This document shows positions 5,949-26,444 of a DNA stretch of 64,000 bases, in pieces. This DNA comes from Aigarchaeota archaeon. Lineage in GTDB: Archaea; Thermoproteota; Nitrososphaeria_A; Caldarchaeales; Wolframiiraptoraceae. The stretch covers positions 3,540 through 67,539 of the forward strand of contig JANXDW010000028.1 in NCBI GenBank assembly GCA_025058515.1. The letters are read 5' to 3'. Position 1 is the stretch's first letter. Each line of letters opens with the position of its first letter. A program made the position numbers and the translations under genes. Below the pieces are notes generated by a model. That model had not been told where the DNA came from. It saw only the letters and a list, made by a program, of their open reading frames with translations, and searched no databases.

Positions 5949-5952
5949 GATT

Positions 5953-6936
5953 ATGGATAATAAGAATACTGCTCAATTACTTGTATTGAAGAATATTAAT
6001 AAGGTATTTCGTTACGGATTCTTCGGATTTGAATTCAAAGCATTGGACAAAGTGAATCTTACAATAGAACATGAAGGAATAATTTACACTATAGCGGGTG
6101 AGAGCGGTAGTGGTAAAACTACATTGGCAAGAATTATCTTAGGTGTACATAAGCCTGATGAGGGACTAGTGGAGTATAAAGGTAAGAATATTCATAGCTT
6201 GAAAAGTTCAGAAGCTAGATGGTTTAGGAGAGAAGTACAAGCAATATTTCAAGATCCATACGCAACATTTAATCCAATGAAAAAAGTCTACTCTTACTTA
6301 TATGAAACAGTTAGATCTTTTCTCGGATTTCACGATGAATCAGAAATAAATGAGTATATCAACAGCAGATTGCTAAGTATAGGTTTAAAATTAGATGATG
6401 TAAAGGAAAAATATCCTCATGAATTTTCAGGTGGTGAACTTCAAAGAATCGCAATAGCAAAATCCCTCTTAACAATGCCTAAATTAATAATTGCAGATGA
6501 ACCAGTTTCAATGCTTGATGCTTCCTTTAGGATAAACATTCTTAACTTATTTAAGGATCTTAAAAGAAGATATAATATCTCTTTTCTATACATTACTCAC
6601 GATCTAGCAACAGCATATTATATAAGCGACTTTATTGCTATTCTATATAGAGGAACTATTGTTGAAAGGGGACCCACAGAAGATATATTAAGAAACCCTC
6701 TTCACCCCTATACTCAAATATTATTAGACTCGTTACCTGAACCCGATCCGAAGAAGAGAGATAAATACATGAAGCCTTTAAAACTATCGGAGATTGAAGA
6801 AAAAGAATTTACAGTTCAAGGATGTAAATTTTCATTTAGGTGCTCTTATTCTAATGAAAAGTGTTTACAAACTCGACCACCTGAAATATTAATTAATAAT
6901 CGAGTCATCAGCTGCTGGCTTTACCATTATAAGTAA
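5953..6936 (+). CDS. Opp/Dpp-class ABC ATPase (OppF type)
   Basis: Walker A GESGSGKTT, signature FSGGELQR, Walker B IADEPVSMLD. I prefer the ATG at 5953 (MDNKNTAQ) over the track start 5878, which overlaps the preceding gene by 71 nt. Confidence 0.85.
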   Translation: MDNKNTAQLLVLKNINKVFRYGFFGFEFKALDKVNLTIEHEGIIYTIAGESGSGKTTLARIILGVHKPDEGLVEYKGKNIHSLKSSEARWFRREVQAIFQDPYATFNPMKKVYSYLYETVRSFLGFHDESEINEYINSRLLSIGLKLDDVKEKYPHEFSGGELQRIAIAKSLLTMPKLIIADEPVSMLDASFRINILNLFKDLKRRYNISFLYITHDLATAYYISDFIAILYRGTIVERGPTEDILRNPLHPYTQILLDSLPEPDPKKRDKYMKPLKLSEIEEKEFTVQGCKFSFRCSYSNEKCLQTRPPEILINNRVISCWLYHYK

Positions 6937-7282: not shown

Positions 7283-9331
7283 ATGAGAATGTTAAAAATA
7301 AAATATATAAATCATATATTAGAAGAATTAGATGTGATTAAGGATATGTTAGGAAGGAATGTGTTTGCTGTTGATACTTCTCGAAGTCCTTATGCACTCT
7401 TAAAGCCTGTTTCTATTACTAGTGTTAAAATTACTGAAGGATTCTGGAAGATGCGTATTGATGCAGTTTTTCAGAATACTTTAATGTCTATATATAGGAA
7501 GTTAGAAGAAACGGATAGAATAAATAGGTTTAGATGGGCTGCGAGAGGCTTACCGATACAATCTGATAAAACGGTTTTTCCATTTGATGATACAGATGTA
7601 TATAAATGGATTGAAGCATGCGCTTATAAGCTAGCTCAAGCACCAGATGAAAATCTTGAAAAATTAATTTCTCAAATAATCTCTGAGATTGGCTCTGCTC
7701 AAGAGCCAGATGGATACTTATTCACAGAACTACATGGAAAACATGATTTAAGATGGAAAAATCTAGCATTCAATCATGAAATGTATACTGCAGGTCATCT
7801 AATACAAGCTGCGATAGCATGGTATAGAGCAACCGGAGATTCAAGTTTACTAAATATTTCTACGAAGTTTGCAGATCTAATTACTGAGACATTTAAGCCA
7901 GATGGGTTAAGAGGAGCATGCGGGCATCCAAATATTGAGATGGCCTTAGTAGAACTCTACCGAGAAACAGGTAAGAGAGATTACCTTGATTGTGCAATTT
8001 ATCTAGTTGAAGAAAGAGGAAGATCATTGATAAGGTCCGATGGAGAACGTGGTTTTATAACAGTATACAATATATTCGGAGGAGCGGAGTATCTTGTCGA
8101 CCATCAGCCTTTCAAAGAATTGAAAGAGATCGCTGGGCACGCAGTTAGAGCATTATACCTTAACTGTGGAGTTACAGATATCTATGCTGAGATAGGAGAT
8201 AAAGAGTTACTATTAACTTTGCATAGATTATGGGAAGACATGACTCAATATAAGATGTATATTACTGGTGGAGTAGGCTCAAGATACATTACTGAATCGT
8301 TTGGAGAACCGTATGAGTTGCCTAATATGAGAGCATACTCAGAAACATGTGCAGCAATTGCTAACTTCATGTGGAATTGGAGAATGTTAGGAGTAACATG
8401 CGATGCGAAATTCACAGATATTATGGAACGAACGATATATAATGGGATATTATCAGGCATATCTTTAAATGGTACACGATTTTTCTATATGAATCCTTTA
8501 GCAAGTAGAGGTCAGTACACTCGTCAAGAATGGTTTTTATGTGCGTGTTGTCCACCAAACATCGCTAGACTTTTAACTTCATTACCAGGATACATATACA
8601 GCGTTTCAAATGAAGGAATCTGGATGCATTTCTACACTAGTAATACTTCTAGTATAAAATTCAACAATATAGATGTAAAAATAACTGTGAAGACAGATTT
8701 TCCATGGAATGAAAAAGCTGAAATACTTGTTGATCCAAGTCAAGAAGAAAAATTTACTGTATTCTTATACATACCAAGTTGGTGTGATAATCCAGTAGTA
8801 AGAGTTAATAAAGAAAGAGTGAAAGCTACACCTAAAACATACCTACCTATTAATAGAGTATGGAGGTCAAATACGCTTATTGAGGTAGCTTTCCCAATGA
8901 AGGTTAAGTTCAACATAGCAAATCCACTCTTAGAAGAAAACTTTGGAAAGGTAGCATTAAGTAGAGGACCCTTAATATACTGTTTTGAAGAGGTGGATAA
9001 TCCTAAAGTTAATCTATGGAATATTTTAATAACCGATGAAAAAGATGTTAAACTAAGTTACCTGAATGATTTAAGTAGTATTGTTGGTTTACAAGTTAAT
9101 GGAATTGAGCTTATTGAAGGTCTTAGAGATTACTTATATCTTCCTATTAATGAGTTAAAAGTTCGATCTAAGAAAATTAAGTTGAAAGCTATCCCCTACT
9201 TTGCATGGGCTAATAGAGGCATGGGTAGTATGAGGGTATGGATTCCATCAACGAAGCGATTCACTATATTGGAAAGTCGATTACGCAGTAAGAAAGAAGC
9301 TAGGATGAAAGTAAGAAAAACTAAAAGATGA
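7283..9331 (+). CDS. Glycoside hydrolase family 127-like (beta-L-arabinofuranosidase / DUF1680 type)
   Basis: 682 aa. SETCAAIA (Glu-x-Cys) and CACCPPNI (Cys-Cys) resemble the Zn/Cys catalytic site I recall for GH127. The start could instead be the internal Met at 7346. Confidence 0.7.
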   Translation: MRMLKIKYINHILEELDVIKDMLGRNVFAVDTSRSPYALLKPVSITSVKITEGFWKMRIDAVFQNTLMSIYRKLEETDRINRFRWAARGLPIQSDKTVFPFDDTDVYKWIEACAYKLAQAPDENLEKLISQIISEIGSAQEPDGYLFTELHGKHDLRWKNLAFNHEMYTAGHLIQAAIAWYRATGDSSLLNISTKFADLITETFKPDGLRGACGHPNIEMALVELYRETGKRDYLDCAIYLVEERGRSLIRSDGERGFITVYNIFGGAEYLVDHQPFKELKEIAGHAVRALYLNCGVTDIYAEIGDKELLLTLHRLWEDMTQYKMYITGGVGSRYITESFGEPYELPNMRAYSETCAAIANFMWNWRMLGVTCDAKFTDIMERTIYNGILSGISLNGTRFFYMNPLASRGQYTRQEWFLCACCPPNIARLLTSLPGYIYSVSNEGIWMHFYTSNTSSIKFNNIDVKITVKTDFPWNEKAEILVDPSQEEKFTVFLYIPSWCDNPVVRVNKERVKATPKTYLPINRVWRSNTLIEVAFPMKVKFNIANPLLEENFGKVALSRGPLIYCFEEVDNPKVNLWNILITDEKDVKLSYLNDLSSIVGLQVNGIELIEGLRDYLYLPINELKVRSKKIKLKAIPYFAWANRGMGSMRVWIPSTKRFTILESRLRSKKEARMKVRKTKR

Positions 9332-11977: not shown

Positions 11978-13732
11978 ATGAATATGAATGAAAAATATTT
12001 TAAACGGAAAAAATCAGCTACATTAAGAACCTTAGGAATTTCTAAGATTCTGAAACTAGTTATTATTGCAATCTTAGTAATCGTTGTTATTGCTTCTGCT
12101 GTAGGCATATATCTCATCACTACTCCTACTGCGCCAACTACACCGACAACTACTCCTGTAACCCCCGTTGTTCAAAAGAAGACGATTAGAGTTTTATTCG
12201 CATTCCCTGTACAGACTGATCCGGGTCTAGCTATAGATTGGGCAAGTCTTAGAGCAGTTAACAATATTTACGATAGCTTAATTCAGCTTGGTTCTACAGG
12301 TGAACCTGACCCACGATTAAGCATTGCCGAGAAATGGGAGGTGACACCTGATGGACTCACTTGGACTTTCCATCTGAAGAAGGATGTAACTTTCCACAGT
12401 GGTAGAACGCTAACAGCTAAAGATGTAGTTTTTTCCCTAGAGAGATTATTGAAGATGGGGTTAGGTCCTGCATTCGTCTTTGCACCATTCGTAGAATCTT
12501 TCAAAGCTATTGATGACTATACTGTTCAAATTAAGTTAAAGAAAACATACGGACCATTCATATACTCTCTTACACTACTCTACATATTAGATAGTGAAGA
12601 GGTAAAAAAGAATATTAAACCAACTGGTGAATATGGTGACTTAGGAGATTATGGAAAGGAATGGCTTAGAGCGCATGATGCAGGGTCCGGTCCTTATAAG
12701 ATAAAGGAACATGTTTTTGGTGAAAAATTGATACTTGAACGTTTTGAAAAATATTGGGGAGAGGTTAATCCGAGGGCTCCTGATGAAGTTGTACTTATTC
12801 CTCCTCCTGAGCCAGCTGCACAAGTAAGCTTATTCTTAACAGGAGAGATTGATATAACATATGGTCTTCCAATAGAGACTATAATTGAGAATATGAAACG
12901 TGATGGGGTTGGGGCTTCTAAATTACTCTATGGACAACAATTCTTATTCGTTCTAAATACTCAGAAACCACCACTGGATGATGTACACTTTAGGAGAGCA
13001 TTAGCATACGCCTTCGATTATGATAAGGCAGTAGGAGCATATGTGCCAGGATACGCTTGGAAATCTATTGGTCCAGTAGCTAACTATTTACCAGGTGCTC
13101 CAAAAGATCTACCAACTTATGAGAAAGATCTTTCAAAAGCAAGAGAAGAAATCAAGAAGTCTAAGTACTATGGTAAATTAAGTGAGTATCCAATAGAACT
13201 CTGGTGGTGTGCAGAAGATCCCTACCAAGAGAAAATAGTATTAATCTTTGTTACAAGTATGAAAGAACTTGATCCTGAAATCCGTATAGATGTTGTTAAG
13301 AAACCTTGGTCAGCGATGGCTGAGGCAACAGCTAAAATAGAGTCAACCCCGCACATAATGATACTACTCTCAACGCCTATATTCCCTGAAACGGGAAACG
13401 TATTACATTTGAAATTCCACTCAGAATATGCTGGCAAATCACTAATACATATCTCTTGGCTACTAAATCCTGAAATGGATAGACTGATAGATGATGCTTT
13501 AACGACGGTTGATGAAGCTACACGATTCAGTAAATACAAAGAAATCGTGAAGAGATTAAATGATATCGTTCCTGAGATTCCAGCATTCGATTTTGCCTAT
13601 ACAGTCCTTTACTGGAAACATTATATTAACTGGCCAGCAGGAGAAGGTAAACCTCCTTACGGTGTTCAATATAATTACAACTTCAGGTTTATGGAAGTTT
13701 ATCCAGAGAAGAAAGCAGAATTATTCAAGTAA
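11978..13732 (+). CDS. ABC transporter substrate-binding protein, family 5, N-terminally anchored
   Basis: 584 aa. N-terminal TM helix (LVIIAILVIVVIASAVGIYLI) followed by a TP-rich linker (TPTAPTTPTTTPVTPV). Family-5 SBP-like core. Confidence 0.85.
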   Translation: MNMNEKYFKRKKSATLRTLGISKILKLVIIAILVIVVIASAVGIYLITTPTAPTTPTTTPVTPVVQKKTIRVLFAFPVQTDPGLAIDWASLRAVNNIYDSLIQLGSTGEPDPRLSIAEKWEVTPDGLTWTFHLKKDVTFHSGRTLTAKDVVFSLERLLKMGLGPAFVFAPFVESFKAIDDYTVQIKLKKTYGPFIYSLTLLYILDSEEVKKNIKPTGEYGDLGDYGKEWLRAHDAGSGPYKIKEHVFGEKLILERFEKYWGEVNPRAPDEVVLIPPPEPAAQVSLFLTGEIDITYGLPIETIIENMKRDGVGASKLLYGQQFLFVLNTQKPPLDDVHFRRALAYAFDYDKAVGAYVPGYAWKSIGPVANYLPGAPKDLPTYEKDLSKAREEIKKSKYYGKLSEYPIELWWCAEDPYQEKIVLIFVTSMKELDPEIRIDVVKKPWSAMAEATAKIESTPHIMILLSTPIFPETGNVLHLKFHSEYAGKSLIHISWLLNPEMDRLIDDALTTVDEATRFSKYKEIVKRLNDIVPEIPAFDFAYTVLYWKHYINWPAGEGKPPYGVQYNYNFRFMEVYPEKKAELFK

Positions 13733-14207: not shown

Positions 14208-15254
14208 ATGAAATCGTTAATAATAAGCAATGAAACTATTAAGTTTTTATTAAAGAGAGGTGGTTCAATAATATTTACACTTATAGGGCTCTCTATACTG
14301 ATATTTATATTAGCGAGAATCCTTCCCGGAGATCCAGCCCGCATGGCTGCTGGTTGGACCGCGCCTGACTGGGTTATTGAAGAAATGAGGAGAAAGCTAG
14401 GGCTAGATCAGCCTCTCCATATACAGTATATTCGATGGTTAAGTGATGTACTGAAGGGAGATCTAGGTTTCTCTATCTATACGAAACGTAGTGTAACGGT
14501 TGATGTTCTACAATATTTACCTAAAACATTAGAGTTAATATTCGTTGCTGAATTGTTCTCGATCACTGGAGGTATACTTCTCGGAATTTTAGCAGGTGCA
14601 TTTCCTTATAGATTACCCGATAATGTCGTAAGAGTAATGTCATATATAGCTATTTCTATGCCCGCCTTCGTATGGGCTATAATCCTCCAACTGATGTTTG
14701 CAAGAATAATTCCATTATTTCCTGCAGGAGGTCAGCTCAGCTCACATATAGTGCCACCACCTAGGATAACAGGCTCAATCTTTATAGATTCAATTATTAG
14801 TGGGAGATTTGATGCGCTCATAGACTGTCTTTGGCATACAATTCTACCTGCCCTGTCCTTATCATTTGGTTCCATGATGCAGAATGCTAGAATATTGAGG
14901 ATGGGTATGACAGATATTAAAGGAAAAGATTACATGGTGTTAAGTGATGCATTAGGTTTACCTCTAAGATTAAAAATATACAAATACCAATTTAGACCTG
15001 CATCAATTCCAGCTATTACTGCTATGGGTATGAGTATCGGTGCAGATTTAGGAAATGCCTTTCTTGTTGAGAATGTGTATAACTGGCCTGGATTCTCGAG
15101 ATATGGCGTGACTGCTATGCTCAACAAAGATCTAAACGCAATCGTAGCAGTTGTGTTAGTAGTGGGAATAGTGTACGCTATTGCTAACTTTATCGTAGAT
15201 TTAATAATATTATCATTAGATCCAAGAATTAGGCGTATGAGTCGTAGTGTTTGA
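14208..15254 (+). CDS. Opp/Dpp-class ABC permease (DppB type)
   Basis: 348 aa polytopic protein with C-terminal SLDPRIRRM. Confidence 0.85.
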   Translation: MKSLIISNETIKFLLKRGGSIIFTLIGLSILIFILARILPGDPARMAAGWTAPDWVIEEMRRKLGLDQPLHIQYIRWLSDVLKGDLGFSIYTKRSVTVDVLQYLPKTLELIFVAELFSITGGILLGILAGAFPYRLPDNVVRVMSYIAISMPAFVWAIILQLMFARIIPLFPAGGQLSSHIVPPPRITGSIFIDSIISGRFDALIDCLWHTILPALSLSFGSMMQNARILRMGMTDIKGKDYMVLSDALGLPLRLKIYKYQFRPASIPAITAMGMSIGADLGNAFLVENVYNWPGFSRYGVTAMLNKDLNAIVAVVLVVGIVYAIANFIVDLIILSLDPRIRRMSRSV

Positions 15255-15266: not shown

Positions 15267-16157
15267 ATGAATGAACTAGTTATTACTGGTAGAAGGTTTC
15301 GATTATTAAGTGATAGATTTAAGAAGTTCTGGTTTAAGTTCTCTAGGAGCTCTTTATCCATCATTGGTTTAATAATTTCAACTACATGCGTTATTCTTGC
15401 AGTTCTAGCACCTTATATCGTTCCCTATCCAGAACATATAGAATGGTATATCGATTATGATAATGCTCTCAGACCGCCTAATTTAGAACATATACTCGGT
15501 ACAGACCAGTATGGTAGAGACGTATTTAGTAGAATAATATTTGGAATGAGGTATTCTTTTACATTAGTAGTTGTCGTTTTATCAATAGTTATCCCGACGG
15601 GTATAGTTCTTGGAGTCTTAGCAGGCTATTTTAAAGATACATGGTTTGACTATTTAATAATGAGAATATCAGATACCTTTGTCGCAGTTCCTCCACTAGT
15701 TATGGCTCTAGCGATTGCAGCGGTCTTAAAACCAAGCATGATCAACTCTATGATAGCTGTTTCTCTTACTTGGTGGCCATGGTATGCCAGATTAACCTAC
15801 TCAGCTGTTTCGTCTTTAAAAAATGAGTACTATATAATATATTCCGAAGTGATAGGAGTTAGTAAACTTAGGGTAATGTTTGTGGAGATTCTACCTAATT
15901 GTATTGGACCTATACTAACTAAGGCTACCCTTGATGTAGGGTGGGTCATATTAGTTGGAGCAGCACTTAGTTTCGTAGGTCTAGGCGCTCAACCTCCTAT
16001 ACCTGACTTAGGGACTATGGTTGCTGAAGGCGCACATTTACTACCAACTACATGGTGGGTAAGCATATTCCCGGCTCTGACCATTACGATAATAATATTA
16101 GGATTTAATCTACTGGGAGATGGGTTAAAAGATGTATTTACAGAAGAGAAATATTAG
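15267..16157 (+). CDS. Opp/Dpp-class ABC permease (DppC type)
   Basis: 296 aa polytopic protein. N-terminal TM then a short loop (GTDQYGRDVFSR) typical of DppC/OppC. Confidence 0.85.
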   Translation: MNELVITGRRFRLLSDRFKKFWFKFSRSSLSIIGLIISTTCVILAVLAPYIVPYPEHIEWYIDYDNALRPPNLEHILGTDQYGRDVFSRIIFGMRYSFTLVVVVLSIVIPTGIVLGVLAGYFKDTWFDYLIMRISDTFVAVPPLVMALAIAAVLKPSMINSMIAVSLTWWPWYARLTYSAVSSLKNEYYIIYSEVIGVSKLRVMFVEILPNCIGPILTKATLDVGWVILVGAALSFVGLGAQPPIPDLGTMVAEGAHLLPTTWWVSIFPALTITIIILGFNLLGDGLKDVFTEEKY

Positions 16158-16166: not shown

Positions 16167-17141
16167 ATGGAGTCATTATTAAGAGTAGAAGATCTAAATG
16201 TTAGATATAAGAGTTATAGAGGAGAACTTAAAGTCTTAGATGATGTAAGCTTTGAAGTAAAAGTCAGAGAAAAAGTTGGATTAATAGGTGAATCAGGATG
16301 TGGTAAGACAACATTGCTTAAATCTATCCTAAGGATCTTACCTCCAAACTCAATAATTTATAAAGGCAAGATATTTTTTAAAAATATTGAGATTATTAAG
16401 GCAAACAAAAATGAAATCTTTAAGATAAGACGTGAAAATATTGGAATGATATTCCAAGATCCTATGAGCGCACTTAATCCATTCTTTAAAGTTAAAGATC
16501 AACTATACGATGCCCTAAGATATTCAGTGCATAACATAAAATCACAGCAAGATTTACAGCAGATGATTATAAAATTGTTGAAAGAAGTTGCATTATCAGA
16601 CTCTGAAAGAATTCTTGAGAGTTATCCCTTTGAGTTAAGTGGAGGCATGCGTCAAAGAGTATGTATAGCTTTAGCATTAACAAGATCAAACGATCTTTTG
16701 TTAGCAGATGAACCGACAACAAATTTAGATGTTACTATTCAAGAGCAGATACTGAATTTATTAAGGGAGTTAGTTAATAAGAGAGGATTATCTATTGTTC
16801 TAGTATCTCATGCACTAGGGATGGTTAAAGAATTTGTTGATAAGATCTATGTAATGTATGCAGGTCAAATAGTTGAAACGGCAAGTACCGATAAGATATT
16901 CTCTGAACCACTTCATCCATATACTAAACTCCTATTATCAGCTGTACCAAGATTAACGGGACGATGGAAGGCTGAAGGTTTAATTGGTAGACTACCCGAC
17001 TATGTGAATCCACCTCCGGGTTGTAGATTTTATATGAGGTGTCAGCAAAGTAATAGTAATTGTAAGATTAAACCAAAGCTCTTAAAATTAAATAAAGATC
17101 ACTCTGTTGCATGTTGGCTGTATGGTGATGAAGAGCATTGA
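16167..17141 (+). CDS. Opp/Dpp-class ABC ATPase (OppD type)
   Basis: GESGCGKTT, LSGGMRQR, LLADEPTTNLD, GCRFYMRC. Confidence 0.9.
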   Translation: MESLLRVEDLNVRYKSYRGELKVLDDVSFEVKVREKVGLIGESGCGKTTLLKSILRILPPNSIIYKGKIFFKNIEIIKANKNEIFKIRRENIGMIFQDPMSALNPFFKVKDQLYDALRYSVHNIKSQQDLQQMIIKLLKEVALSDSERILESYPFELSGGMRQRVCIALALTRSNDLLLADEPTTNLDVTIQEQILNLLRELVNKRGLSIVLVSHALGMVKEFVDKIYVMYAGQIVETASTDKIFSEPLHPYTKLLLSAVPRLTGRWKAEGLIGRLPDYVNPPPGCRFYMRCQQSNSNCKIKPKLLKLNKDHSVACWLYGDEEH

Positions 17142-18097
17142 ATGAGCTTCTTGTAGTTAAGAATTTGAAAAAATACTTCAAGACAAAATTTGGACTAGTT
17201 AAAGCAGTTGACGGTATCACTTTTCATATAAATGAAGGAGAAACATTTGCATTAGTTGGAGAATCTGGGTCAGGAAAAAGTACTACTGGACATATGATAG
17301 TAGGAATGTATGCTCCGACCTCAGGAGAGATATACTACAAGATGAACAACATCTCTGTACATGCTAGTAAGAGACCTAAAAACATAACTCGTGAGATACA
17401 AGTCGTCTTCCAAGATCCAGCTTCATCTCTTAATCCTTCAAGGTATATCAAAGATATAATTGGAACACCTTTAAAAGTTTACAACTTGATTAGAAATAGT
17501 ACTGAAGTAGAGCAGAAAGTTGCCGACCTACTAGAAAATGTGGAATTGCCTCCAGAACTATATATGTATAGGAAACCTAGAGAACTTGGTGGAGGAGAAC
17601 TACAAGCTATTGCAATAGCGAGAGCACTATCAACTAACCCAAAATTGATAATACTGGATGAGCCAACCTCTGCTTTAGATGTAATAACTCAGGCAAAAAT
17701 AATTAATCTCCTCCTTAATCTACAGAAAAAACACAATCTAACATATCTATTTATTACACATGATCTAGCAGTAGTAAGAAACATTGCATCTAGAGTTGCA
17801 GTTATGTATCTCGGAAAGATAGTTGAAACTGCCCCTACAATTGAACTCTTTAACCATTGTAGACATCCTTATAGTATGATGCTATTCTCATCTATCCCTG
17901 TAATTTCAGAAGATGAGAAGAATCTTAAGCCAAAGAAAATAACGTCTATCGGTGAGATCCCAAGTTCACTATCTATACCTCCTGGTTGTAGATTCCATAC
18001 AAGATGCCCATATGCTGAAGCTAGATGTAAGGTAGAAGAACCCTCATTAAAACATATCAATAGCGGGCACATCGTAGCATGTCATTTAGCAGAATGA
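17138..18097 (+). CDS. Opp/Dpp-class ABC ATPase (OppF type)
   Basis: GESGSGKST, LGGGELQA, ILDEPTSALD, GCRFHTRCPYA. TTG start overlaps the preceding stop by 4 nt. Confidence 0.9.
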   Translation: MNELLVVKNLKKYFKTKFGLVKAVDGITFHINEGETFALVGESGSGKSTTGHMIVGMYAPTSGEIYYKMNNISVHASKRPKNITREIQVVFQDPASSLNPSRYIKDIIGTPLKVYNLIRNSTEVEQKVADLLENVELPPELYMYRKPRELGGGELQAIAIARALSTNPKLIILDEPTSALDVITQAKIINLLLNLQKKHNLTYLFITHDLAVVRNIASRVAVMYLGKIVETAPTIELFNHCRHPYSMMLFSSIPVISEDEKNLKPKKITSIGEIPSSLSIPPGCRFHTRCPYAEARCKVEEPSLKHINSGHIVACHLAE

Positions 18098-18217: not shown

Positions 18218-18958
18218 ATGTTAGATAAAGTGAAAATTTATTTCATAATTCCATGTGGGACTGCTATTTATGATGAACCTTGTCTTAAGACTATCGATAA
18301 AGTTAAAAAACATGATACCATAGTAGATGTAGTTCATCTCTCTAAAGGACCTGAACATGTAGAATACCATTATTTTGAACATATAGTTATGGATGAAACT
18401 CTTGATTTAGTAAGAAGGGCTGAGAGAGATGGTTACACTGCAGTAGTAATAGATTGTTTCTATGATCTAGGTCTTAGAGAAGCAAGAGAGTTGGTTAAAA
18501 TACCAGTTATAGGTATAGGAGAGGCAAGTTACTATGTAGGAGCAATGATGGGTCATAAATTCTCTGTTCTAGTTGGAAGAAGAAAAAGCATACCTAAGAT
18601 GTACGATAATCTAGTTGCTTATGGTCTTGAGAGGAGACTTGCTTCTTTCAGGTCTTTGGAGTTGAACCCAGTTCAAATGATTCAATACCCTGATAGGTTA
18701 AAGGAGAGAATAATTCAAGAAGCGGAGAAAGCTATTTACGAGGATCAAGCAGAAGTCATAATTCTCGGATGTGGTGCTCAAACTGGATTAGCTGAAGAAT
18801 TAATGAAGATACTTCATGTCCCAGTAATCGATCCAGTAGCTGTATCTATTAAAATTGCTGAGATGTTATCAGAACTTTATGTTAAGCTAGGATTATCACA
18901 TTGCAAATTATTTGGTTATGAGTCGCCTCCACCTAACCTATTTAGAGAGATAATATAA
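18218..18958 (+). CDS. Asp/Glu/hydantoin racemase family protein (HyuE-like, two-cysteine)
   Basis: VVIDCFYDLGL and IILGCGAQTGL match the two catalytic-Cys motifs of hydantoin/allantoin racemases. ATG at 18218 is preferred over GTG at 18194. Confidence 0.7.
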   Translation: MLDKVKIYFIIPCGTAIYDEPCLKTIDKVKKHDTIVDVVHLSKGPEHVEYHYFEHIVMDETLDLVRRAERDGYTAVVIDCFYDLGLREARELVKIPVIGIGEASYYVGAMMGHKFSVLVGRRKSIPKMYDNLVAYGLERRLASFRSLELNPVQMIQYPDRLKERIIQEAEKAIYEDQAEVIILGCGAQTGLAEELMKILHVPVIDPVAVSIKIAEMLSELYVKLGLSHCKLFGYESPPPNLFREII

Positions 18959-19050
18959 TGGATAAAAATTTCAACTCAACTATTTTTAATTATTCATTCG
19001 ATATCAAAATTAAAATTTTACTTTAACACTAACATATTAAGGTGTTTTAA

Positions 19051-21135
19051 GTGGATAAATGGAGGATAGGCATAGACATTGGTGGTGCTTTTACAGATCT
19101 ATACGCTATACATTTAAAGACTGGGGAAAGCGTGTGGAGTAAAGTAGAGTCAACTCCTCCAAATTATGAGATTGGCGTCTTGAATGGTATTGAAGAACTT
19201 GAGAATGTCAACGTATACGTTAGAGATGCTATTCAGATAATTCATGGTCAGACGGTTGTAATAAATACGATTATAACTCGTACAGGTTCAAGGGTAGGGT
19301 TTATCACCACTGAAGGATTTGATACTATAGAGATACAGCGTGCAAATAGGAGAGATATATTCAATTTTCGATATAGTAAGCCGAAGCCATTCGTTTCGAG
19401 AAGTTTAACTAGATGGGTAAAAGAAAGAATAGATGTCGACGGAAGTATATACATACCTCTTAGTGAGAGTGAGGTAAAAGAAGCGGTTAGGAGTCTTTTG
19501 CGAAGTGACGTTGAGTCAATAGCTATAGGATTCATAAATAGTTACATAAATCCGATTCACGAAACGAAAGCGAGAGAGTTAGCTGAAGAAGTTTTCAGAG
19601 AAGAAGGTAAGTCAAAAAATTATGTTACGATTTCTAGTGACTTAAGTAGGGAATGGAGAGAATATGAAAGATTTAATACAGCTATACTAAATGCTTACGT
19701 TCAGCCAGCTTTCGTAAATTATATCGAGAAACTGGAAGAGATATTGAAAAAGAAGGGTTTTAGGGGGACTTTCTACATCACGCTCTCATCTGGAGGTGTT
19801 GTTACTTCAGAATACGCTAAGAAATATCCAATAACTACGATTGAAGGAGGTCCGATAGCCGGAATAATGGGCGGAGTACGTTTAGCATCCCTATTAAATA
19901 TAAAGAATATTATAGTAATTGATGGAGGAAGTACAACAACTAAAGCCGGGATAGCAAAGGATCTTATTCCTAAAGTACATACAGAGTATTGGATTGAGCA
20001 AGATGAATGGAATGCTGGATATCCTTTAAGAGTACCTACTCTAGATATCCATGAAATAGGATTAGGTGGTACGAGTATAATCTACCTAGATGAGCTAGGG
20101 AATCTACGTGTAGGTCCACAAGCAGCGGGTGCTAGACCAGGTCCAGCATGTTACGGGATAGGTGGCAATAAACCTACTTTAACAGATGCATACGTGGTCT
20201 TAGGTTATCTTAATCCTAATTATCTCCTAGGAGGGAAACTGAAAATCGATAGTAAGAAAGCAGTTGAGGTAGTAAGTCAACTTGCAAAGAGTCTGAACCT
20301 AGATTATTGTAAACTAGCGCATGCTGCCATAATTCTAGCTAACGATTATGCAGCCAATCTAATTAGACAGATCTCTATTAAGAGAGGATATGATCCAAGA
20401 GAATTTACATTAATAGCTCATGGAGGTTCGGGACCGATGTTTGCACCATTTATCGCTAAAGAACTAAAAATTCCTCTAATATTAGTCCCATCTATACCTA
20501 GTGGAGTTTTTAATGCATGGGGAATGATAGGGCTAAATATAAGACATGAAGTAATACAGACAAATATTCTCCGTGTAGAAGAAAATGATAGATTCGTTGA
20601 GATAGTGAATAATGTATTTAGTGAAATCCGCAAGAGCATTATAAACATGTTTAAAAGTGAAAATATAGATCCAGAATCAGTTGAGACTTCAGGATATCTA
20701 GACATGAGGTATGAAGGCCAAGCTCATACATTAAAAGTCGAATCTCCATCTACTGAGATAACATTAAAAGATGTACGAGAGATAAAAGAAAGATTCCATC
20801 AAGTTCACTATAATGAATATGGTTTTAAATTACCAGATAGTAACATAGAAATTGTGAGCTTCCATTTAGTAGGAGTTCATAAAGTATCACCTCCAGGAAT
20901 TGAAAGAATAGCTCAGAAAGGAACAATTAAGAATGCATTCCTAGAAGAGAGAGAAATATATGTTGATGGAAGAGAAATAAGGACACCCGTGTATAAAAAA
21001 GAATTACTGCCTCCTCAAATAACACTTAACGGACCTTTAATCATAGAAGGTGATACTTCTACGGTGATAGTTCCTAAAGATTTTAAGATACTTCACGATG
21101 TTTATGGTAATATTCTAATGAAGCCGGAGGCTTGA
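19051..21135 (+). CDS. Hydantoinase/oxoprolinase family, A subunit (HyuA type)
   Basis: 694 aa. N-terminal IGIDIGGAFTD (ASKHA-fold ATPase motif of HyuA/OplA); size and layout fit the family. GTG start. Confidence 0.85.
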   Translation: MDKWRIGIDIGGAFTDLYAIHLKTGESVWSKVESTPPNYEIGVLNGIEELENVNVYVRDAIQIIHGQTVVINTIITRTGSRVGFITTEGFDTIEIQRANRRDIFNFRYSKPKPFVSRSLTRWVKERIDVDGSIYIPLSESEVKEAVRSLLRSDVESIAIGFINSYINPIHETKARELAEEVFREEGKSKNYVTISSDLSREWREYERFNTAILNAYVQPAFVNYIEKLEEILKKKGFRGTFYITLSSGGVVTSEYAKKYPITTIEGGPIAGIMGGVRLASLLNIKNIIVIDGGSTTTKAGIAKDLIPKVHTEYWIEQDEWNAGYPLRVPTLDIHEIGLGGTSIIYLDELGNLRVGPQAAGARPGPACYGIGGNKPTLTDAYVVLGYLNPNYLLGGKLKIDSKKAVEVVSQLAKSLNLDYCKLAHAAIILANDYAANLIRQISIKRGYDPREFTLIAHGGSGPMFAPFIAKELKIPLILVPSIPSGVFNAWGMIGLNIRHEVIQTNILRVEENDRFVEIVNNVFSEIRKSIINMFKSENIDPESVETSGYLDMRYEGQAHTLKVESPSTEITLKDVREIKERFHQVHYNEYGFKLPDSNIEIVSFHLVGVHKVSPPGIERIAQKGTIKNAFLEEREIYVDGREIRTPVYKKELLPPQITLNGPLIIEGDTSTVIVPKDFKILHDVYGNILMKPEA

Positions 21136-21138
21136 GGT

Positions 21139-22884
21139 ATGAGTGAAGAATTGATTTCAATACAAGTGATAAAGAATACTTTAACAAGTATAGTTAAAGA
21201 GATGTTTTGGACGACTGTAAGAGCTGCTAAAAGCAGTATCATATATGAGACGTATGATTTTTCTCCTGCGTTACTCGATGAAGATGGAAATTTGATAGCA
21301 ATAGGTACAGGTGTCCCTAACTTTATAGGAATTATGCCCTTTATTGTAAGATGCGTCTTAGAGGATGTTGAAAGAGAAGGATTAAGCATGGACCCTGGAG
21401 ATATCTTTATTGTTAATGATCCATACAGATCTGGGACTCATCTCAATGATGTTGGATTAGTTATGCCATTATTCTATGATAAAATATTGATCGCTACATC
21501 CGCTATTAAGGGACATATTAATGATGTTGGAGGAATGAATCCGGGAAGCTGGGGTCCAAACGCTGTCGAAATATTTCAAGAAGGATTGATCATACCACCT
21601 ACCCATCTTTATAGAAAGGGAGAACTAAATAAAGAAATCTTAAGAATAATCTTACATAATACAAGGATCCCCGAGTATGTTCATGGAGATATCGAAGCTT
21701 TAGCATCTGCTTTGAGATATGCGCAACGTCGTATTAACGAACTTTGTGAAAAATATGGTGTAAGGATAGTTAAGAAAGCTATAGTTGATAAGGTAGAAGA
21801 GGGTAAGCTGCTAGCAAAAAAGAATCTTGCTAAACTTCCAAAAGGTGAATTCTTTGCAGAAGAGAGAATAGAAAAATATGAGAACATGGAAGAAGATCTC
21901 AGGATTACGGTACGGGTAAAGATAACTGATGATGAATTTATTGCTGACTTCTCAGAGAATCCTCTCCAAGTAAAAGCTCCTATAAATACAACTTACCCTG
22001 GAACTTACGCATCTGTAGCCATAGCATTCGTAGCAGTAACAGATCCACATGTATCTCTTAGCCAAGGATATTTAGATCCCATCGAAGTTATTGCACCTGT
22101 AGGAACCCTTTTTAATGCAACCCCTCCTGCACCCGTCAGCTGTTATTGGGAGACGATGTTCTATGCGGTTGACTTGATATGGAAAGCTTTAGCAATACAT
22201 ATCCCTGATAAGCTTACAGCTGGACACTTCTTATCAGTAGTAAGTGAAACATTAAGTATGATAGATCCAAGAGATGGTAAGTATAAGATATTATGTGAAC
22301 CTAATCCAGGAGGTTGGGGAGCTGGAGTAGATAGAGATGGAGAATCTTGCTTGGTTTCATCTGCTGATGGAGAGACTTATACTCATCCAGCGGAAGTATT
22401 GGAGAGAGAATATCCGATACGTGTAGAATGTATGAAGTTGAATGTTGAGGAAGGCGTAGGTCATGGAAGATTTAGAGGAGGATTTGGACTGAGAAAAGAT
22501 TATAGAATACTTTCCGATGAAGCAGTATTAGTTTGCTCAATTAACAGGATAACTTATCCACCTTGGGGCGTCGAAGACGGAATGGATGGTACCTGCAATC
22601 ACATAGCTATCATTAGAGATGATAACATTATCTGGGATGGAGGGAGAGCATTCAATTTTAAACTAACTAAAGGAGATGTAGTAAGCATTAGAAGTGGAGG
22701 TGGTGGAGGATGGGGGAATCCACTTGAACGCGAACCTGAAAGAGTTCTTGAAGATTACAAGAATAAACTGATTACTTTAGATGTTGCTAAGAACGTTTAT
22801 GGAGTATTGATAGACCCCAAACATCTGAAAGTAGACATTGAGGCAACTAGAAAACTTAGAGAAGCTCTTTTATCGAAAACTTAA
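21139..22884 (+). CDS. Hydantoinase/oxoprolinase family, B subunit (HyuB type)
   Basis: 581 aa. VNDPYRSGTHLNDV is typical of Hydantoinase_B. Starts 4 nt after the HyuA stop. Confidence 0.85.
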   Translation: MSEELISIQVIKNTLTSIVKEMFWTTVRAAKSSIIYETYDFSPALLDEDGNLIAIGTGVPNFIGIMPFIVRCVLEDVEREGLSMDPGDIFIVNDPYRSGTHLNDVGLVMPLFYDKILIATSAIKGHINDVGGMNPGSWGPNAVEIFQEGLIIPPTHLYRKGELNKEILRIILHNTRIPEYVHGDIEALASALRYAQRRINELCEKYGVRIVKKAIVDKVEEGKLLAKKNLAKLPKGEFFAEERIEKYENMEEDLRITVRVKITDDEFIADFSENPLQVKAPINTTYPGTYASVAIAFVAVTDPHVSLSQGYLDPIEVIAPVGTLFNATPPAPVSCYWETMFYAVDLIWKALAIHIPDKLTAGHFLSVVSETLSMIDPRDGKYKILCEPNPGGWGAGVDRDGESCLVSSADGETYTHPAEVLEREYPIRVECMKLNVEEGVGHGRFRGGFGLRKDYRILSDEAVLVCSINRITYPPWGVEDGMDGTCNHIAIIRDDNIIWDGGRAFNFKLTKGDVVSIRSGGGGGWGNPLEREPERVLEDYKNKLITLDVAKNVYGVLIDPKHLKVDIEATRKLREALLSKT

Positions 22885-23071
22885 TCTACACAACTTAACA
22901 TATAATACCTCTTTAAAGTAAATTTAATAATTCTCATTGAGAAACATCTTTAACGGGCTTTATTGATAATTCATATTGAGTTAAGCTTACAAAGATGTAA
23001 AAACAATTCTACAGTAACTACTTGTTAGTGTTATACAAGAAAGCATAAATAAGAGTTTTGCGGGAAAACTT

Positions 23072-25507
23072 ATGATGACAATTTTAAATGAATCTATCGT
23101 CAAAGAAGTTGAGAGAAGAAGAGAGCGGATTAAGCCTTTCAACGAGAGAATTGCGAGATTAAGAGAATTAACAACACAATCTATAGTTAAAGTCTCTGTT
23201 GAAAGAGCTAAACTTTTAACAGAATTTTATAGAGATCATATTCGTGAAGGCTTATCTATTCCTGTTCAGAGAGCTTTGGCTTTTAAGTATTTAATGGAAA
23301 ATGTTTCCCTCCCAGTCGAGCCTGGTCAACTTATCGTAGGGATAAGAGGAACTGGTGTGAACGAAGTTCCAACTTATCCTGAAATTAATCTACATACAGT
23401 TGATGATTTGAAGATATTAAATGAAAGAGAGATCATGCCTTACAAAGTTACCTATGAAGATATTAAGATCTATGAAGAAGAGATAATTCCATTCTGGAAA
23501 GGTAGGACGATTAGAGATATTCTCTTTGTAAATATGTCTCGTGAATGGATAGATGCGTATGAAGCAGGTATATGGACAGAATTCATGGAGCAGAGACCAC
23601 CAGGTCACACGGCTGGTGGGGAAAGAATATTTAAGATAGGTGTTCTTGATATAAAGAAGAGAATTCGTGAAAAGATTTCTCAACTAGATCGTAAAGATCC
23701 AGAGTATCTTGAGAAGCTTGAAGAACTTAAAGCAATGGATATCGTTGCAGATGCGATACTTATCTATGCTGAAAGATATGCTAAATTGCTCTCAGACATG
23801 GCTGAGAAAGAGACTGATTCCGAGAGGAGGAGAGAATTAAAAGATATGGCAGAGATTTGTAGATGGGTTCCTGCAAATGCTCCCAGAACTTTCTGGGAAG
23901 CATTACAGCATTATTGGTTTATTCATGTTGGGATAACTTATGAGACAAATCCATGGGATTCGTTTACCCCGGGTAGGCTCGACTTATGGCTTTATCCATT
24001 TTACAAGAGAGATATTGATGAAGGAAGGCTTACAAGAGAGAAAGCTAAAGAACTGCTTGCATGCTTCTTCTTGAAATTCAATAGTCAGCCAGCTCCACCT
24101 AAAGTAGGTGTAACACATGAGGAAAGCTCAACTTATAATGATTTTTCAAAAATAAATATTGGAGGTATTAGAGAAGATGGTAAATGTAATGTTAATGAAC
24201 TATCCTATCTCATTTTAGAAGTTTATGATGAACTGAGAACTTTACAGCCAAACTTTGCAGTTCTAGTAAGCGAGAAGACCCCTGATAATTTTCTTATACA
24301 AGCCTTAAAGGTTGCTTCTGCAGGTTTCGGTGAACCACCATTCTTCAATCATGATGGAGTTATAGTTAAAATGCTTAGACAAGGTAAGAGCTTAGAAGAC
24401 GCAAGACTTTCAGGGGTTAGTGGATGTGTAGAATCAGGAGCATTTGGAAAGGAAGCATATATATTGACAGGCTACTTTAATCTGCCGAAGATACTTGAGA
24501 TAACATTAAACAATGGTGTAGATCCTAGAACTGGTAAGAAGATAGGTTTAGAGACTGGAAAACCAGATGAATTTAAGAATTTTGAAGAATTATGGAATGC
24601 ATTCTTAAAACAAGTAAAATATTTCCTAGATTTAAAGATGGAGGGGAACGATATTATAGAAGCAATATATGCAAAATACATGCCTGTCCCCTTCCTTTCT
24701 CTATGGATTGAAGATTGCGTAGAGAATTGCAAAGATTATAATGTTGGGGGAGCAAGATATAACACTCAATACATACAGATGGTTGGTCTAGGGACCGTTA
24801 CGGATTCTTTAGTAGCAATAAAGTATCACGTGTTTGAGAATAAAACGTTTACAATGTCAGATATATTAAATGCTTTAGGAAGAAACTTTGAAGGTTATGA
24901 ATTAATGATGGAATTGCTTAGGAATCCTGAAAAGACGCCTAAGTATGGTAATGATGATGACTATGTAGATGATTTAGCTGTAAGAATAGTGAAGACTTTA
25001 AGTGAACTCGTTGAAAGCTACCCACAATCTCCAACAAGGAAAGCTTCAAAGAGAGTCTACTGGCTTCCAACAACAGTCCACGTTTATTTTGGAAAAGTAA
25101 CTGGAGCTACACCTGATGGTAGGAGAGCTGGCTTCCCCGTCTCTGAAGGGATTTCACCAGTTCAAGGAATGGACCGTAAAGGGATCACAGCGACTTTTAA
25201 CAGTGTAGCAAAATGTGATTGGGATAAAACAGGTGGAGCATTGTTAAATGTTAAACTCTCTCCAGAGATATTTGAAGAAGAAAATGTTAAAAAGCTTGTA
25301 CAAGCTATAAGGTCATTCTTCAGACTCGGGGGGCATCATGTACAATTTAACGTAATAAGTACTGAAGTATTAAAAGAAGCTCAAAAAAGACCTAAAGACT
25401 TCCAAGACTTAATGGTTAGAGTTGCAGGATACAGTGACTATTTTGTAAAACTTCCAAAAGCATTACAAGATGAAATAATTGCTAGAGCTGAGAAGAAATT
25501 TATCTAA
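23072..25507 (+). CDS. Glycyl radical enzyme, Cys-x-Glu (eliminase / PFL2-like) class
   Basis: 811 aa. C-terminal glycyl loop MVRVAGYSDYF (Gly codon 25427-25429). Single thiyl Cys in SGCVESG (Cys codon 24425-24427, Glu at +2). Confidence 0.9.
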   Translation: MMTILNESIVKEVERRRERIKPFNERIARLRELTTQSIVKVSVERAKLLTEFYRDHIREGLSIPVQRALAFKYLMENVSLPVEPGQLIVGIRGTGVNEVPTYPEINLHTVDDLKILNEREIMPYKVTYEDIKIYEEEIIPFWKGRTIRDILFVNMSREWIDAYEAGIWTEFMEQRPPGHTAGGERIFKIGVLDIKKRIREKISQLDRKDPEYLEKLEELKAMDIVADAILIYAERYAKLLSDMAEKETDSERRRELKDMAEICRWVPANAPRTFWEALQHYWFIHVGITYETNPWDSFTPGRLDLWLYPFYKRDIDEGRLTREKAKELLACFFLKFNSQPAPPKVGVTHEESSTYNDFSKINIGGIREDGKCNVNELSYLILEVYDELRTLQPNFAVLVSEKTPDNFLIQALKVASAGFGEPPFFNHDGVIVKMLRQGKSLEDARLSGVSGCVESGAFGKEAYILTGYFNLPKILEITLNNGVDPRTGKKIGLETGKPDEFKNFEELWNAFLKQVKYFLDLKMEGNDIIEAIYAKYMPVPFLSLWIEDCVENCKDYNVGGARYNTQYIQMVGLGTVTDSLVAIKYHVFENKTFTMSDILNALGRNFEGYELMMELLRNPEKTPKYGNDDDYVDDLAVRIVKTLSELVESYPQSPTRKASKRVYWLPTTVHVYFGKVTGATPDGRRAGFPVSEGISPVQGMDRKGITATFNSVAKCDWDKTGGALLNVKLSPEIFEEENVKKLVQAIRSFFRLGGHHVQFNVISTEVLKEAQKRPKDFQDLMVRVAGYSDYFVKLPKALQDEIIARAEKKFI

Positions 25508-25526
25508 ATAGAAGGTTACCAATTTT

Positions 25527-26444
25527 ATGATTAAAGGAACAATCTTCAATATACAGAAATTCGCAATTTATGATGGACCAGGTTTAAGGACTTTAATCTT
25601 TATGAAGGGCTGTCCATTAAGATGTTTATGGTGCCAAAATCCAGAAGGATTAACTCTTAATCCTCAGTTAGCATATCATGACCGTATATGCATACATTGT
25701 CATACATGTGTAAAAGTTTGTCAACTTAATGTAATAAAGATAGAAGGAGATGATACTCACATTATAGATAGAGGAAAGTGTAATATGTGTAGAAGATGTA
25801 TTAATGTATGTCCTTCAGGAGCATTATCTGTAATCGGCAGAGAGATCTCTGTAGATGATCTTATTAAAGAGATAGAAAGAGATATGATATATTATGATTC
25901 ATCAGGAGGTGGAGTAACTTTTTCAGGGGGAGAACCACTATTTCAACCACAGTTTCTCTACGAATCTCTTAAAAAATGTAAGGAATTGAGTATACATACT
26001 ACAATTGAAACTTCTGGATATGCAAACCAACAAATATTTAAAAAAATATCTGAGAAAGTAGACTTATTCCTCTATGATGTGAAGATCGTAGATGAGGAAC
26101 TGCATAAAAAGTATACCGGTGTCTCGAATAGAAAGATATTAAGTAATTTAAGATTTTTAGTGATGTCTGGAAGAGGCAAAGACATAATAATCCGGATCCC
26201 TCTAATTCCAACTATTACTGACACTGATGAAAACATTGGTAACATTATGAGATTATTACTGTCGCTAAAAGATATAGAAGAAGTTCATCTCTTACCATTT
26301 CATGATGTTCATGAAAAGTATAATTATCTAGGAATGACGTATAGGATGCCAATCCATCAACAATTAAAAATTGAGAGAATAAAATCTATCAAGGAAGAGT
26401 TTGAAAAGAAAGGATTTTATGTAAGTTTATGGGGTGTTAAATAA
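25527..26444 (+). CDS. Glycyl radical enzyme activating enzyme (radical SAM)
   Basis: CPLRCLWCQNPE (CxxxCxxC) plus two ferredoxin-like motifs, CIHCHTCVKVC and CNMCRRCINVCP. The 305 aa size is typical of long-form GRE activases. Confidence 0.9.
   Translation: MIKGTIFNIQKFAIYDGPGLRTLIFMKGCPLRCLWCQNPEGLTLNPQLAYHDRICIHCHTCVKVCQLNVIKIEGDDTHIIDRGKCNMCRRCINVCPSGALSVIGREISVDDLIKEIERDMIYYDSSGGGVTFSGGEPLFQPQFLYESLKKCKELSIHTTIETSGYANQQIFKKISEKVDLFLYDVKIVDEELHKKYTGVSNRKILSNLRFLVMSGRGKDIIIRIPLIPTITDTDENIGNIMRLLLSLKDIEEVHLLPFHDVHEKYNYLGMTYRMPIHQQLKIERIKSIKEEFEKKGFYVSLWGVK

Follow-up and report, generated by a model that had tools for sequence, protein, structure and literature searches.

A predicted archaeal hydroxyproline dehydratase of the glycyl radical family beside an importer, racemase and HyuA/HyuB cassette that may be loosely linked to it

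On which substrate does an archaeal glycyl radical enzyme (GRE) act when it is encoded beside a transporter, a racemase and a putative lactam-opening enzyme, and do these genes make up one pathway? The question is raised by a stretch of 64,000 nucleotides (nt) from an Aigarchaeota archaeon (GenBank assembly GCA_025058515.1, contig JANXDW010000028.1, positions 3,540 to 67,539 of the forward strand), which we refer to throughout as the window. Here genes for a racemase, HyuA- and HyuB-type subunits, a GRE and its radical S-adenosylmethionine (SAM) activating enzyme (AE, or activase) lie directly 3' of the second ATP-binding cassette (ABC) operon of the window (ABC2, 11978-18097), all on the + strand. 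An earlier interpretation made from the nucleotide letters alone (the sequence-only reading) had proposed a single anaerobic route, in which a cyclic amide or ketone is imported, racemised, opened or carboxylated by HyuA/HyuB and then passed to a GRE with no assigned substrate. Open reading frames (ORFs) of the window were typed against Pfam and NCBIfam, and solved relatives were taken from matches to PDB sequences. The genes in question are the following.

11978..13732, + strand: ABC2 substrate-binding protein (SBP; SBP_bac_5, Dpp/Opp/Nik class), 584 amino acids (aa); Pfam PF00496, E = 3e-68
14208..15254, + strand: ABC2 permease, DppB/NikB-like; BPD_transp_1 and BPD_transp_1_N
15267..16157, + strand: ABC2 permease, DppC-like; BPD_transp_1 and OppC_N
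16167..17141, + strand: ABC2 ATPase, DppD/OppD-like; ABC_tran and oligo_HPY
17138..18097, + strand: ABC2 ATPase, DppF/OppF-like; ABC_tran and oligo_HPY
18218 (ATG) or 18194 (GTG)..18958, + strand: two-Cys racemase/epimerase of the hydantoin/allantoin-racemase branch; Asp_Glu_race PF01177, E = 4e-38
19051..21135, + strand: HyuA-type subunit, 694 aa; Hydant_A_N, Hydantoinase_A and Hydant_A_C
21139..22884, + strand: HyuB-type subunit, 581 aa; Hydantoinase_B, E = 1.6e-151
23072..25507, + strand: GRE, very probably HypD (trans-4-hydroxy-L-proline dehydratase), 811 aa; PFL-like, E = 2.7e-221, and Gly_radical
25527..26444, + strand: GRE activating enzyme (radical SAM), 305 aa; Radical_SAM and Fer4 families

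The genes of this array are real and not chance ORFs, because they are long and match their families strongly. ORFs, family matches and translations confirm the five elements and the motifs that the sequence-only reading had described (VVIDCFYD and IILGCGAQ in the racemase), and its family calls also stand: a two-Cys hydantoin-type racemase, HyuA/HyuB, a Cys-x-Glu eliminase GRE, a long-form activase and an Opp/Dpp-class transporter. Only 3 nt separate the HyuA stop codon (TGA, 21133-21135) from the HyuB ATG (21139), and the remaining gaps measure 120 nt between ABC2 and the racemase (96 nt with the GTG start), 92 nt between racemase and HyuA, 187 nt between HyuB and the GRE, and 19 nt between the GRE and its activase. 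The spacers hold TATA-like and T-rich stretches, which are uninformative at 35% GC, and an Rfam scan of the window found no regulatory RNAs.

The GRE is, as judged from its sequence, very probably a trans-4-hydroxy-L-proline dehydratase (HypD) of a known kind, belonging to an archaeal clade. It scores 1108.1 bits against the NCBIfam equivalog NF043068 (glycl_HYPD, cutoff 1100), a narrow pass, the second-best family being PFL2-3 at 634 bits. Its best match among solved structures is Clostridioides difficile HypD (6vxc, E = 4e-273, 52% identity over the full length), followed by glycerol dehydratase (E = 2e-139), and matches to the N-methyl-hydroxyproline dehydratases (8id1, 8iof) and to HplG (7vua) are weaker than that to glycerol dehydratase. 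We scored 14 HypD residues (F152, R156, H160, W277, D278, K326, S334, D339, F340, C434, E436, Y450, T645 and G765), which in the C. difficile enzyme are catalytic, substrate-binding or nearby charge (R156, K326) residues (PMC7077986). All 14 are identical in the window GRE and in 20 aligned relatives, and all 14 are kept in every one of the 81 complete sequences among 85 aligned GREs, the four end-truncated sequences keeping each residue that they cover. The Cys-x-Glu loop (SGCVESG) and the glycyl radical motif RVxG (MVRVAGYSD) are both present, with C452/E454 aligning with HypD C434/E436 and Gly786 with HypD Gly765. The sequence-only reading had regarded the GRE as lacking an assigned substrate and had named a comparison of pocket residues as a check against itself; that comparison gave HypD, and the claim is thereby refuted. 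To our knowledge, HypD has so far been assayed from bacteria alone. The clade to which the window enzyme belongs covers many archaeal phyla and thermophilic bacteria at 65–85% identity, and archaeal HypDs had previously been seen as a clade adjoining thermophilic bacterial HypDs (Huang et al. 2018, PMC6219649). With C. difficile HypD and HypD-AE (6VXC/6VXE) the window enzyme shares the Gly loop, the Cys-Val-Glu loop, all scored residues and a dedicated activase, here encoded directly downstream; it differs in its archaeal host, in its neighbours (Dpp-class transporters, a glycoside hydrolase of family GH127 and the cassette B defined below) and in having no adjacent pyrroline-5-carboxylate (P5C) reductase, the usual clostridial partner (PMC6219649).

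The activase carries a CX3CX2C motif (CPLRCLWC) and two ferredoxin-type clusters (CIHCHTCVKVC and CNMCRRCINVC). It passes TIGR02494 with 355 bits against a cutoff of 174, and lies under the cutoff of the HypD-activase equivalog NF043069 (352 versus 425 bits), unlike the HypD-AE of the C. difficile type.

If the GRE is HypD, the next question is whether the genes upstream of it belong to the same unit. We collected 79 HypD-anchored loci from GTDB genomes other than that of the window (loci of this and the following set are given as L and a number). The activase adjoins HypD in 73 of the 79, and the order racemase-hyuAB-GRE-AE, whose recurrence the sequence-only reading had put forward as a check, is found in none. 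After the activase, the commonest neighbours are M24 peptidases with a Creatinase_N domain (13 loci), whose best match is the archaeal Xaa-Pro dipeptidase PepQ, followed by a Pyr_redox_2/Fer2_4 protein (8), a DAO oxidoreductase (7), an M29-like protein (6), GH127 (5), the Pro_racemase family (5) and HyuAB (3, all in Nitrososphaerales loci); a PF01177 racemase lies near HypD in 4 of the 79 by ORF clustering, with tblastn matches in 5. The most informative locus is the closest relative, L003, which has to be read against two further features of the window.

732..6936, + strand: ABC1, the first Opp/Dpp-class operon (752-aa SBP, two permeases, two ATPases); Pfam
7283..9331, + strand: GH127 glycoside hydrolase (beta-L-arabinofuranosidase family); three GH127 Pfam domains, E = 3e-103

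In L003 a GH127 gene on the opposite strand is followed by SBP-permease-permease-ATPase-ATPase-HypD-AE, with no racemase and no HyuAB. The transporter is the orthologue of ABC1 and not of ABC2 (81, 73, 68, 64 and 64% identity), and it runs on the same strand directly into HypD (81% identical to the window GRE) and the activase (63%). Compared with this arrangement, ABC1 and hypD are thus separated in the window by GH127, GH31 and the entire ABC2-racemase-HyuAB block. The region most likely consists of two separately conserved cassettes placed head to tail, namely cassette A, comprising HypD and its activase (23072-26444), and cassette B (11978-22884), comprising the Dpp-class ABC2 importer, the two-Cys epimerase and HyuA/HyuB, and the four-part array would accordingly be a lineage-specific juxtaposition. 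From this GRE-anchored view synteny of hyuAB and the racemase with HypD first appeared essentially absent, a view that the racemase-anchored scan described below has revised.

Cassette B is a self-contained unit. Its closest HyuB (70–78%) and racemase (63–84%) orthologues lie on GRE-free contigs with the gene order shuffled, for example HyuA-HyuB-SBP-permease-permease-ATPase-ATPase-racemase in L088, racemase-SBP-...-ATPase-HyuA-HyuB in L090, SBP-...-ATPase-HyuA-HyuB-cupin-M24 in L083 and SBP-...-ATPase-racemase in L091, the last at 82–91% identity. HyuB orthologues of 70–78% identity occur in Bathyarchaeota, Desulfurococcaceae and Tepidanaerobacteraceae, and of 67–68% in Atribacteria and Hadesarchaea. 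The importer travels with the cassette: ABC2 SBP orthologues of 70–90% identity are found in the stand-alone cassette B loci L083, L088 and L091, the first permease (14208..15254) is 53–59% identical to a permease in most racemase-anchored loci, and the second (15267..16157) is 56–63% identical to its counterparts there. The solved relatives of the SBP bind peptides, nickel, haem or opines (~1e-30) and are thus uninformative as to ligand. The SBP gene is parted from the permease genes by an unusually long AT-rich gap of 475 nt (13733-14207), in which the source annotation places a 55-aa ORF on the opposite strand. A small cupin gene (~111 aa) lies between or beside hyuA and hyuB in eight relative loci (e.g. 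L086 425-4604, L083 11754-12089, L131 3324-3662), and is not present in the window.

The best solved relatives of the racemase are an allantoin racemase (5lfd, 8e-27) and a hydantoin racemase (3qvj, 2e-24), and it also matches the fungal cyclic-peptide epimerase OpaE (9qbx, 2e-15); Cys80 is found in all of 29 relatives and Cys185 in at least 90% of them. HyuA scores best against caprolactamase alpha (475 bits versus a cutoff of 1000) and HyuB reaches 236 bits against caprolactamase beta (cutoff 1000), and N-methylhydantoinase 7hk5 is matched by both (best solved relative of HyuA, E = 1e-118; HyuB, E = 4e-77). Neither subunit reaches any characterised member at equivalog level, and the models for acetophenone carboxylase (Apc) fall far under cutoff. 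By these matches, HyuAB is placed within the ATP-dependent hydantoinase/oxoprolinase/caprolactamase superfamily, but none of the assayed enzymes is its orthologue. Like caprolactamase CapAB (6YRA), N-methylhydantoinase (7HK5) and 5-oxoprolinase, it has a two-subunit A/B architecture with no extra carboxylase subunits; it differs from them in scoring about half or less of the equivalog cutoffs and in being paired with a racemase and an importer of the dipeptide class. The carboxylation allowed for by the sequence-only reading is therefore unlikely, since there are only two subunits and these resemble lactam hydrolases most closely, both in family models and in solved structures.

A racemase-anchored metagenome scan gave 80 loci, which after deduplication at 90% racemase identity left 30 neighbourhoods whose locus spans 10 kb or more. 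An ABC ATPase is present in all 30, an SBP in 26, HyuA or a HyuA-like protein in 15 and HyuB in 13. The other recurrent neighbours are an M29-like protein (14), a nitroreductase-fold protein (14) and its ~100-aa partner DUF6092 (12), M24 (12), DUF917 (9), HypD (4), the Pro_racemase family (4) and OCD/mu-crystallin (3). The nitroreductase-fold protein has its best solved relative in AlbA, subunit A of cyclodipeptide oxidase (CDO; 8uc3_A, 6e-31), and a profile of the DUF6092 partner matches AlbB (8uc3_D, 6e-12), while a single-sequence search of PDB with the DUF6092 protein gave no match; in L093 this partner shows the E-P-x-x-Y-x-x-x-R spacing described as conserved in AlbB, from which other members differ slightly. 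The M29-like family has the ring-cleaving NicX (7cn3, 8e-28) as its best solved relative. No carbamoylase was found among the annotated recurrent neighbour families (85 racemase loci, 79 HypD loci), and the annotated ORFs of the window include no N-carbamoyl-amino-acid amidohydrolase.

These neighbourhoods resemble a set already described. According to a paper that gives cyclic dipeptides as the only known AlbA/AlbB substrates (PMC11055893, Nat Commun 2024), CDO-like genes outside cyclodipeptide synthase clusters show an enrichment of PF01177 racemases, DUF917, peptidases and ABC transporters of dipeptide type around them. The window shares with those neighbourhoods the homologue of PF01177 hydantoin racemases and the dipeptide-class transporter, and relatives of its racemase sit in such clusters together with peptidases and DUF917; it differs in having no CDO pair, peptidase or DUF917, as searched by tblastn with representatives. 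Term searches of that paper, together with a literature search, found no link of CDO clusters to HypD.

Several features of the wider racemase family were seen in passing. In L093 the AlbA-like/AlbB-like pair (10305-10987, - strand) lies directly upstream of HypD-AE in the same orientation, and the racemase of this locus matches one named Candidatus Bathyarchaeia; L105, L112 and L119 have such a pair close by as well, and the pair would act as a flavoenzyme in what are likely anaerobes. The M29-fold family (~348 aa) falls under Pfam thresholds, and a single locus can have as many as four paralogues of it surrounding the racemase-ABC core (e.g. L110 4629-9331; L124 4530-8097 and 16781-17812). 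In a more distant branch (L170 10663-19230, L159, L171, L154) the racemase precedes a short gene of HyuA-like type, then DUF917, M24 and another DUF917. The arrays of L170 and L171 go on to a member of the Pro_racemase family and to a Pyr_redox_2/Fer2_4 flavoprotein; that of L154 stops at its Pro_racemase-family member, and L159 has no such member. In its layout this branch resembles an aerobic or alternative version of the same system for proline/hydroxyproline. The co-occurrence of PF01177, M24 and OCD brought to mind the hydroxyectoine (Eut-like) genes, an analogy that we rejected because all the GREs keep the HypD pocket and the M24 proteins match PepQ over ectoine hydrolase.

Are the two cassettes then linked in function? 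Members of the same racemase family lie within 10 kb of HypD in five architectures.

Window: ABC-racemase-HyuAB-HypD-AE
L093: CDO pair-HypD-AE, convergent with racemase-ABC; L012 and L015 have the same HypD/racemase-ABC convergence, with CDO-pair homologues on the contig
L105, L112, L119: AE-HypD-racemase-ABC on one strand, with OCD and M29-like genes upstream
L131: HyuBA-ABC, divergent from racemase-HypD
L069, L073: AE-HypD, then an M29-like gene on the opposite strand, then the racemase

The GREs of all five keep the HypD pocket, and HyuAB adjoins HypD in L131 as well as in the three Nitrososphaerales loci. HypD is found in 4 of the 30 racemase neighbourhoods, compared to about 0.3 of 30 expected by chance (a rough estimate that takes one hypD per 2–3 Mb genome). 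On the strength of these five architectures and this excess we lean somewhat towards a functional link between the cassettes that is real but loose. The cooperation supposed by the sequence-only reading thus survives in part: the racemase-ABC core recurs beside the same GRE in several unrelated lineages, and the four-gene unit as such is not conserved.

The alternative that survives best is that the two cassettes are functionally unrelated, HypD serving peptides or glycopeptides imported by ABC1 and cassette B being an independent lactam or hydantoin salvage unit inserted between ABC1/GH127 and hypD. Such independence would account for the contiguous ABC1-HypD-AE of L003, for the self-contained occurrence of cassette B elsewhere and for the 26 of 30 racemase neighbourhoods that have no HypD, and the 187-nt spacer could hold a promoter of its own. 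It fits poorly with a racemase beside HypD in five architectures, including the tight same-strand AE-HypD-racemase-ABC of L105, L112 and L119, and with the excess over chance estimated above; nor do the borders of cassette B in the window show repeats or mobile-element ends of the kind that might flank an insertion. We consider this alternative rather doubtful.

Assuming instead that the cassettes are linked, what might pass between them? Our overall reading, which we hold tentatively and with the balance not quite in its favour, is that HypD lies beside a conserved uptake, racemase and lactam-opening cassette that may feed it from cyclic dipeptides. Cassette B would import proline- or hydroxyproline-containing 2,5-diketopiperazines or a close lactam analogue, the epimerase would equilibrate the stereocentres of the imported rings, and HyuAB would open the unstrained ring with ATP to give a linear X-Hyp or X-Pro dipeptide, from which a prolidase-type peptidase encoded elsewhere would release hydroxyproline for dehydration by HypD. 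If the chemistry follows that of C. difficile HypD, the activase would set the glycyl radical on Gly786 and the radical would move to Cys452, which would take a hydrogen from C5 of hydroxyproline, and C4 would then lose water to yield P5C. HyuAB-type enzymes open unstrained lactams with ATP, both five-membered (5-oxoproline, hydantoins) and seven-membered (caprolactam), and a diketopiperazine is a six-membered bis-lactam that is notably protease-resistant and forms spontaneously from X-Pro peptides on heating. Diketopiperazines have been described as abundant, heat-formed and protease-resistant, and their microbial breakdown as little understood (PMC3852281).

We favour cyclic dipeptides over hydantoins because the importer is of the dipeptide class, because the recurrent hydrolases are of dipeptidase type (M24 PepQ-like and M29-like) and not carbamoylases, because AlbA/AlbB enzymes are known to act on cyclic dipeptides only, and because the downstream enzymes handle proline and hydroxyproline (HypD, the Pro_racemase family, OCD and a PDH-type flavoprotein). 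The presence among the solved relatives of the racemase of OpaE, which acts on a cyclic peptide derivative, argues in the same direction. Epimerisation of diketopiperazines has a precedent in NozR (PMC10156859). This homologue of Asp/Glu racemases, for which a model was built on allantoin racemase, has in common with the window racemase its family, the two-Cys dyad and a fold that can act on diketopiperazine stereocentres; it differs in being biosynthetic (nocardioazine) and actinobacterial, and is likened to the window protein by description and not by sequence. Cyclic dipeptides are thus a possible substrate of cassette B, though on balance not a probable one. It is just as speculative to suppose that the core of cassette B is an undescribed and widespread route of diketopiperazine catabolism, in which HyuAB would be the first ATP-dependent cyclic-dipeptide hydrolase and which would feed HypD from cyclo(X-Hyp) in anaerobic archaea and thermophiles. 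A literature search for HypD with hydantoinase or diketopiperazine found no paper.

A number of observations weigh against this overall reading. Each cassette is mostly found without the other, HypD being absent from the majority of cassette B loci and cassette B from the majority of HypD loci, and the HypD-racemase loci L105, L112 and L119 have neither HyuAB nor DUF917, so that the racemase-HypD link, where no ring opener is present, cannot always run through HyuAB. The HyuB-GRE gap contains an AT-rich TATA-like stretch that permits separate transcription. A 2026 review lists no archaeal PFL-like GRE with demonstrated function (PMC13450708), and the CDO paper leans towards hydantoin- or allantoin-like substrates while leaving the function open (PMC11055893). 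The chain is also incomplete locally, as the window has no M24- or M29-like homologue, CDO pair, DUF917 or P5C-consuming enzyme, and the proposed route therefore needs genes elsewhere in the genome. Finally, we know of no HyuAB enzyme that hydrolyses a diketopiperazine.

Classical hydantoin utilisation is the more familiar interpretation of cassette B: in Pseudomonas, hyuA/hyuB/hyuC/hyuE encode the racemisation of hydantoins and their ATP-dependent opening to N-carbamoyl-amino acids, and 5-substituted hydantoins would be treated likewise here. The window has the same pairing of a racemase with ATP-dependent HyuAB, whose nearest solved relatives are allantoin/hydantoin racemases and N-methylhydantoinase respectively, but no carbamoylase, and none is found among the annotated recurrent neighbours, where M24- and M29-like proteins recur instead. 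Similar clusters are read in this way in the CDO paper (PMC11055893); the importer is of the dipeptide class, however, and the AlbA/AlbB homologues are known to act on cyclic dipeptides only, which leaves this interpretation improbable. A creatinine/N-methylhydantoin pathway was considered and rejected, since an achiral substrate would make the racemase pointless and there is no carbamoylsarcosine amidase. The agropinic-acid (aga) genes of Agrobacterium likewise combine a Dpp-type importer with a HyuAB-like lactamase, and differ in their opine enzymes, which the window lacks; relative to both the hyu and the aga systems the link to HypD is new.

As improbable as hydantoin utilisation is that HyuAB is a 5-oxoprolinase, with the racemase acting on D/L-5-oxoproline or glutamate in a pyroglutamate salvage that is common in thermophiles and unrelated to hydroxyproline. 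HyuAB-type enzymes do include 5-oxoprolinases and the taxa are largely thermophilic, but the cassette always occurs with a Dpp-class importer, the racemase is of hydantoin and not glutamate type, HyuAB has no equivalog-level match to any characterised member, and the recurrent neighbours are proline/hydroxyproline enzymes and CDO-like proteins and not glutamate enzymes. As for the one linear pathway of the sequence-only reading, in which the GRE is a new eliminase acting on the ring-opened or carboxylated product of HyuAB, the same-strand adjacency in the window speaks for it and it is nevertheless very improbable, given a GRE that passes the HypD equivalog, a pocket that is kept in every complete homologue whatever its neighbours and a four-gene order that recurs nowhere else. 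HypD takes free trans-4-hydroxy-L-proline, and for this reason the HyuAB product would not be its direct substrate; a further hydrolytic step is needed, and none is encoded in the window.

A second source of hydroxyproline is likely in this lineage, namely glycosylated hydroxyproline taken up through ABC1 and trimmed by GH127. GH127 homologues of 43–49% identity lie beside HypD in L003, L016, L046, L051 and L064, and in the last three, from Thermotogota and Atribacteria, GH127-M24(PepQ-like)-HypD-AE form an array on one strand, at the following positions (ends approximate).

L046: 2788-8200, GH127-M24-HypD-AE
L051: 7473-13400, GH127-M24-HypD-AE
L064: 6981-13400, GH127-M24-HypD-AE

These arrays suggest hydroxyproline salvage from beta-L-arabinosylated plant or algal glycoproteins, of which ABC1 and GH127 (732-9331) would be the counterpart in the window. 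Family GH127 includes Bifidobacterium HypBA1, which removes beta-L-arabinofuranose from hydroxyproline; as there, the window gene lies beside an oligosaccharide/peptide ABC operon, but the likeness is at the family level only. Its best NCBIfam match, aceric acid hydrolase, reaches half of the cutoff, and it lies 13.7 kb upstream of HypD. No paper combining GH127, hydroxyproline and glycyl radical was found in a literature search.

The window as a whole has three Opp/Dpp-class ABC operons in 36 kb (732-6936, +; 11978-18097, +; 28597-35686, -), of which the first and third have unusually large SBPs (752 and 866 aa), and GH127 and GH31 glycosidases sit between the first and the second; some of these operons may transport glycosides and not peptides. 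A 93-nt tRNA with anticodon CAT at 27277-27369 (-), to which Rfam gives 58.8 bits and ARAGORN gave no name, is too long for a plain tRNA and probably bears an intron. The window is archaeal by its other genes, among them those for AFOR, KaiC-type ATPases, Alba and an A24 peptidase of archaeal type.

The locus provides a confident candidate for function in the archaeal GREs. The recurrent neighbourhood offers candidates for each step of diketopiperazine breakdown (importer, epimerase, ATP-dependent opener, CDO-like dehydrogenase and prolidase) and ties these candidate enzymes to proline and hydroxyproline catabolism, while the GH127-M24-HypD-AE operons suggest that anaerobes obtain hydroxyproline from the arabinosylated cell-wall proteins of plants and algae. 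Judged from gene context, an undescribed route for the catabolism of cyclic dipeptides or similar lactams is suggested by the recurrent though loose association that ties the racemase-importer core to HypD, prolidases and CDO homologues.

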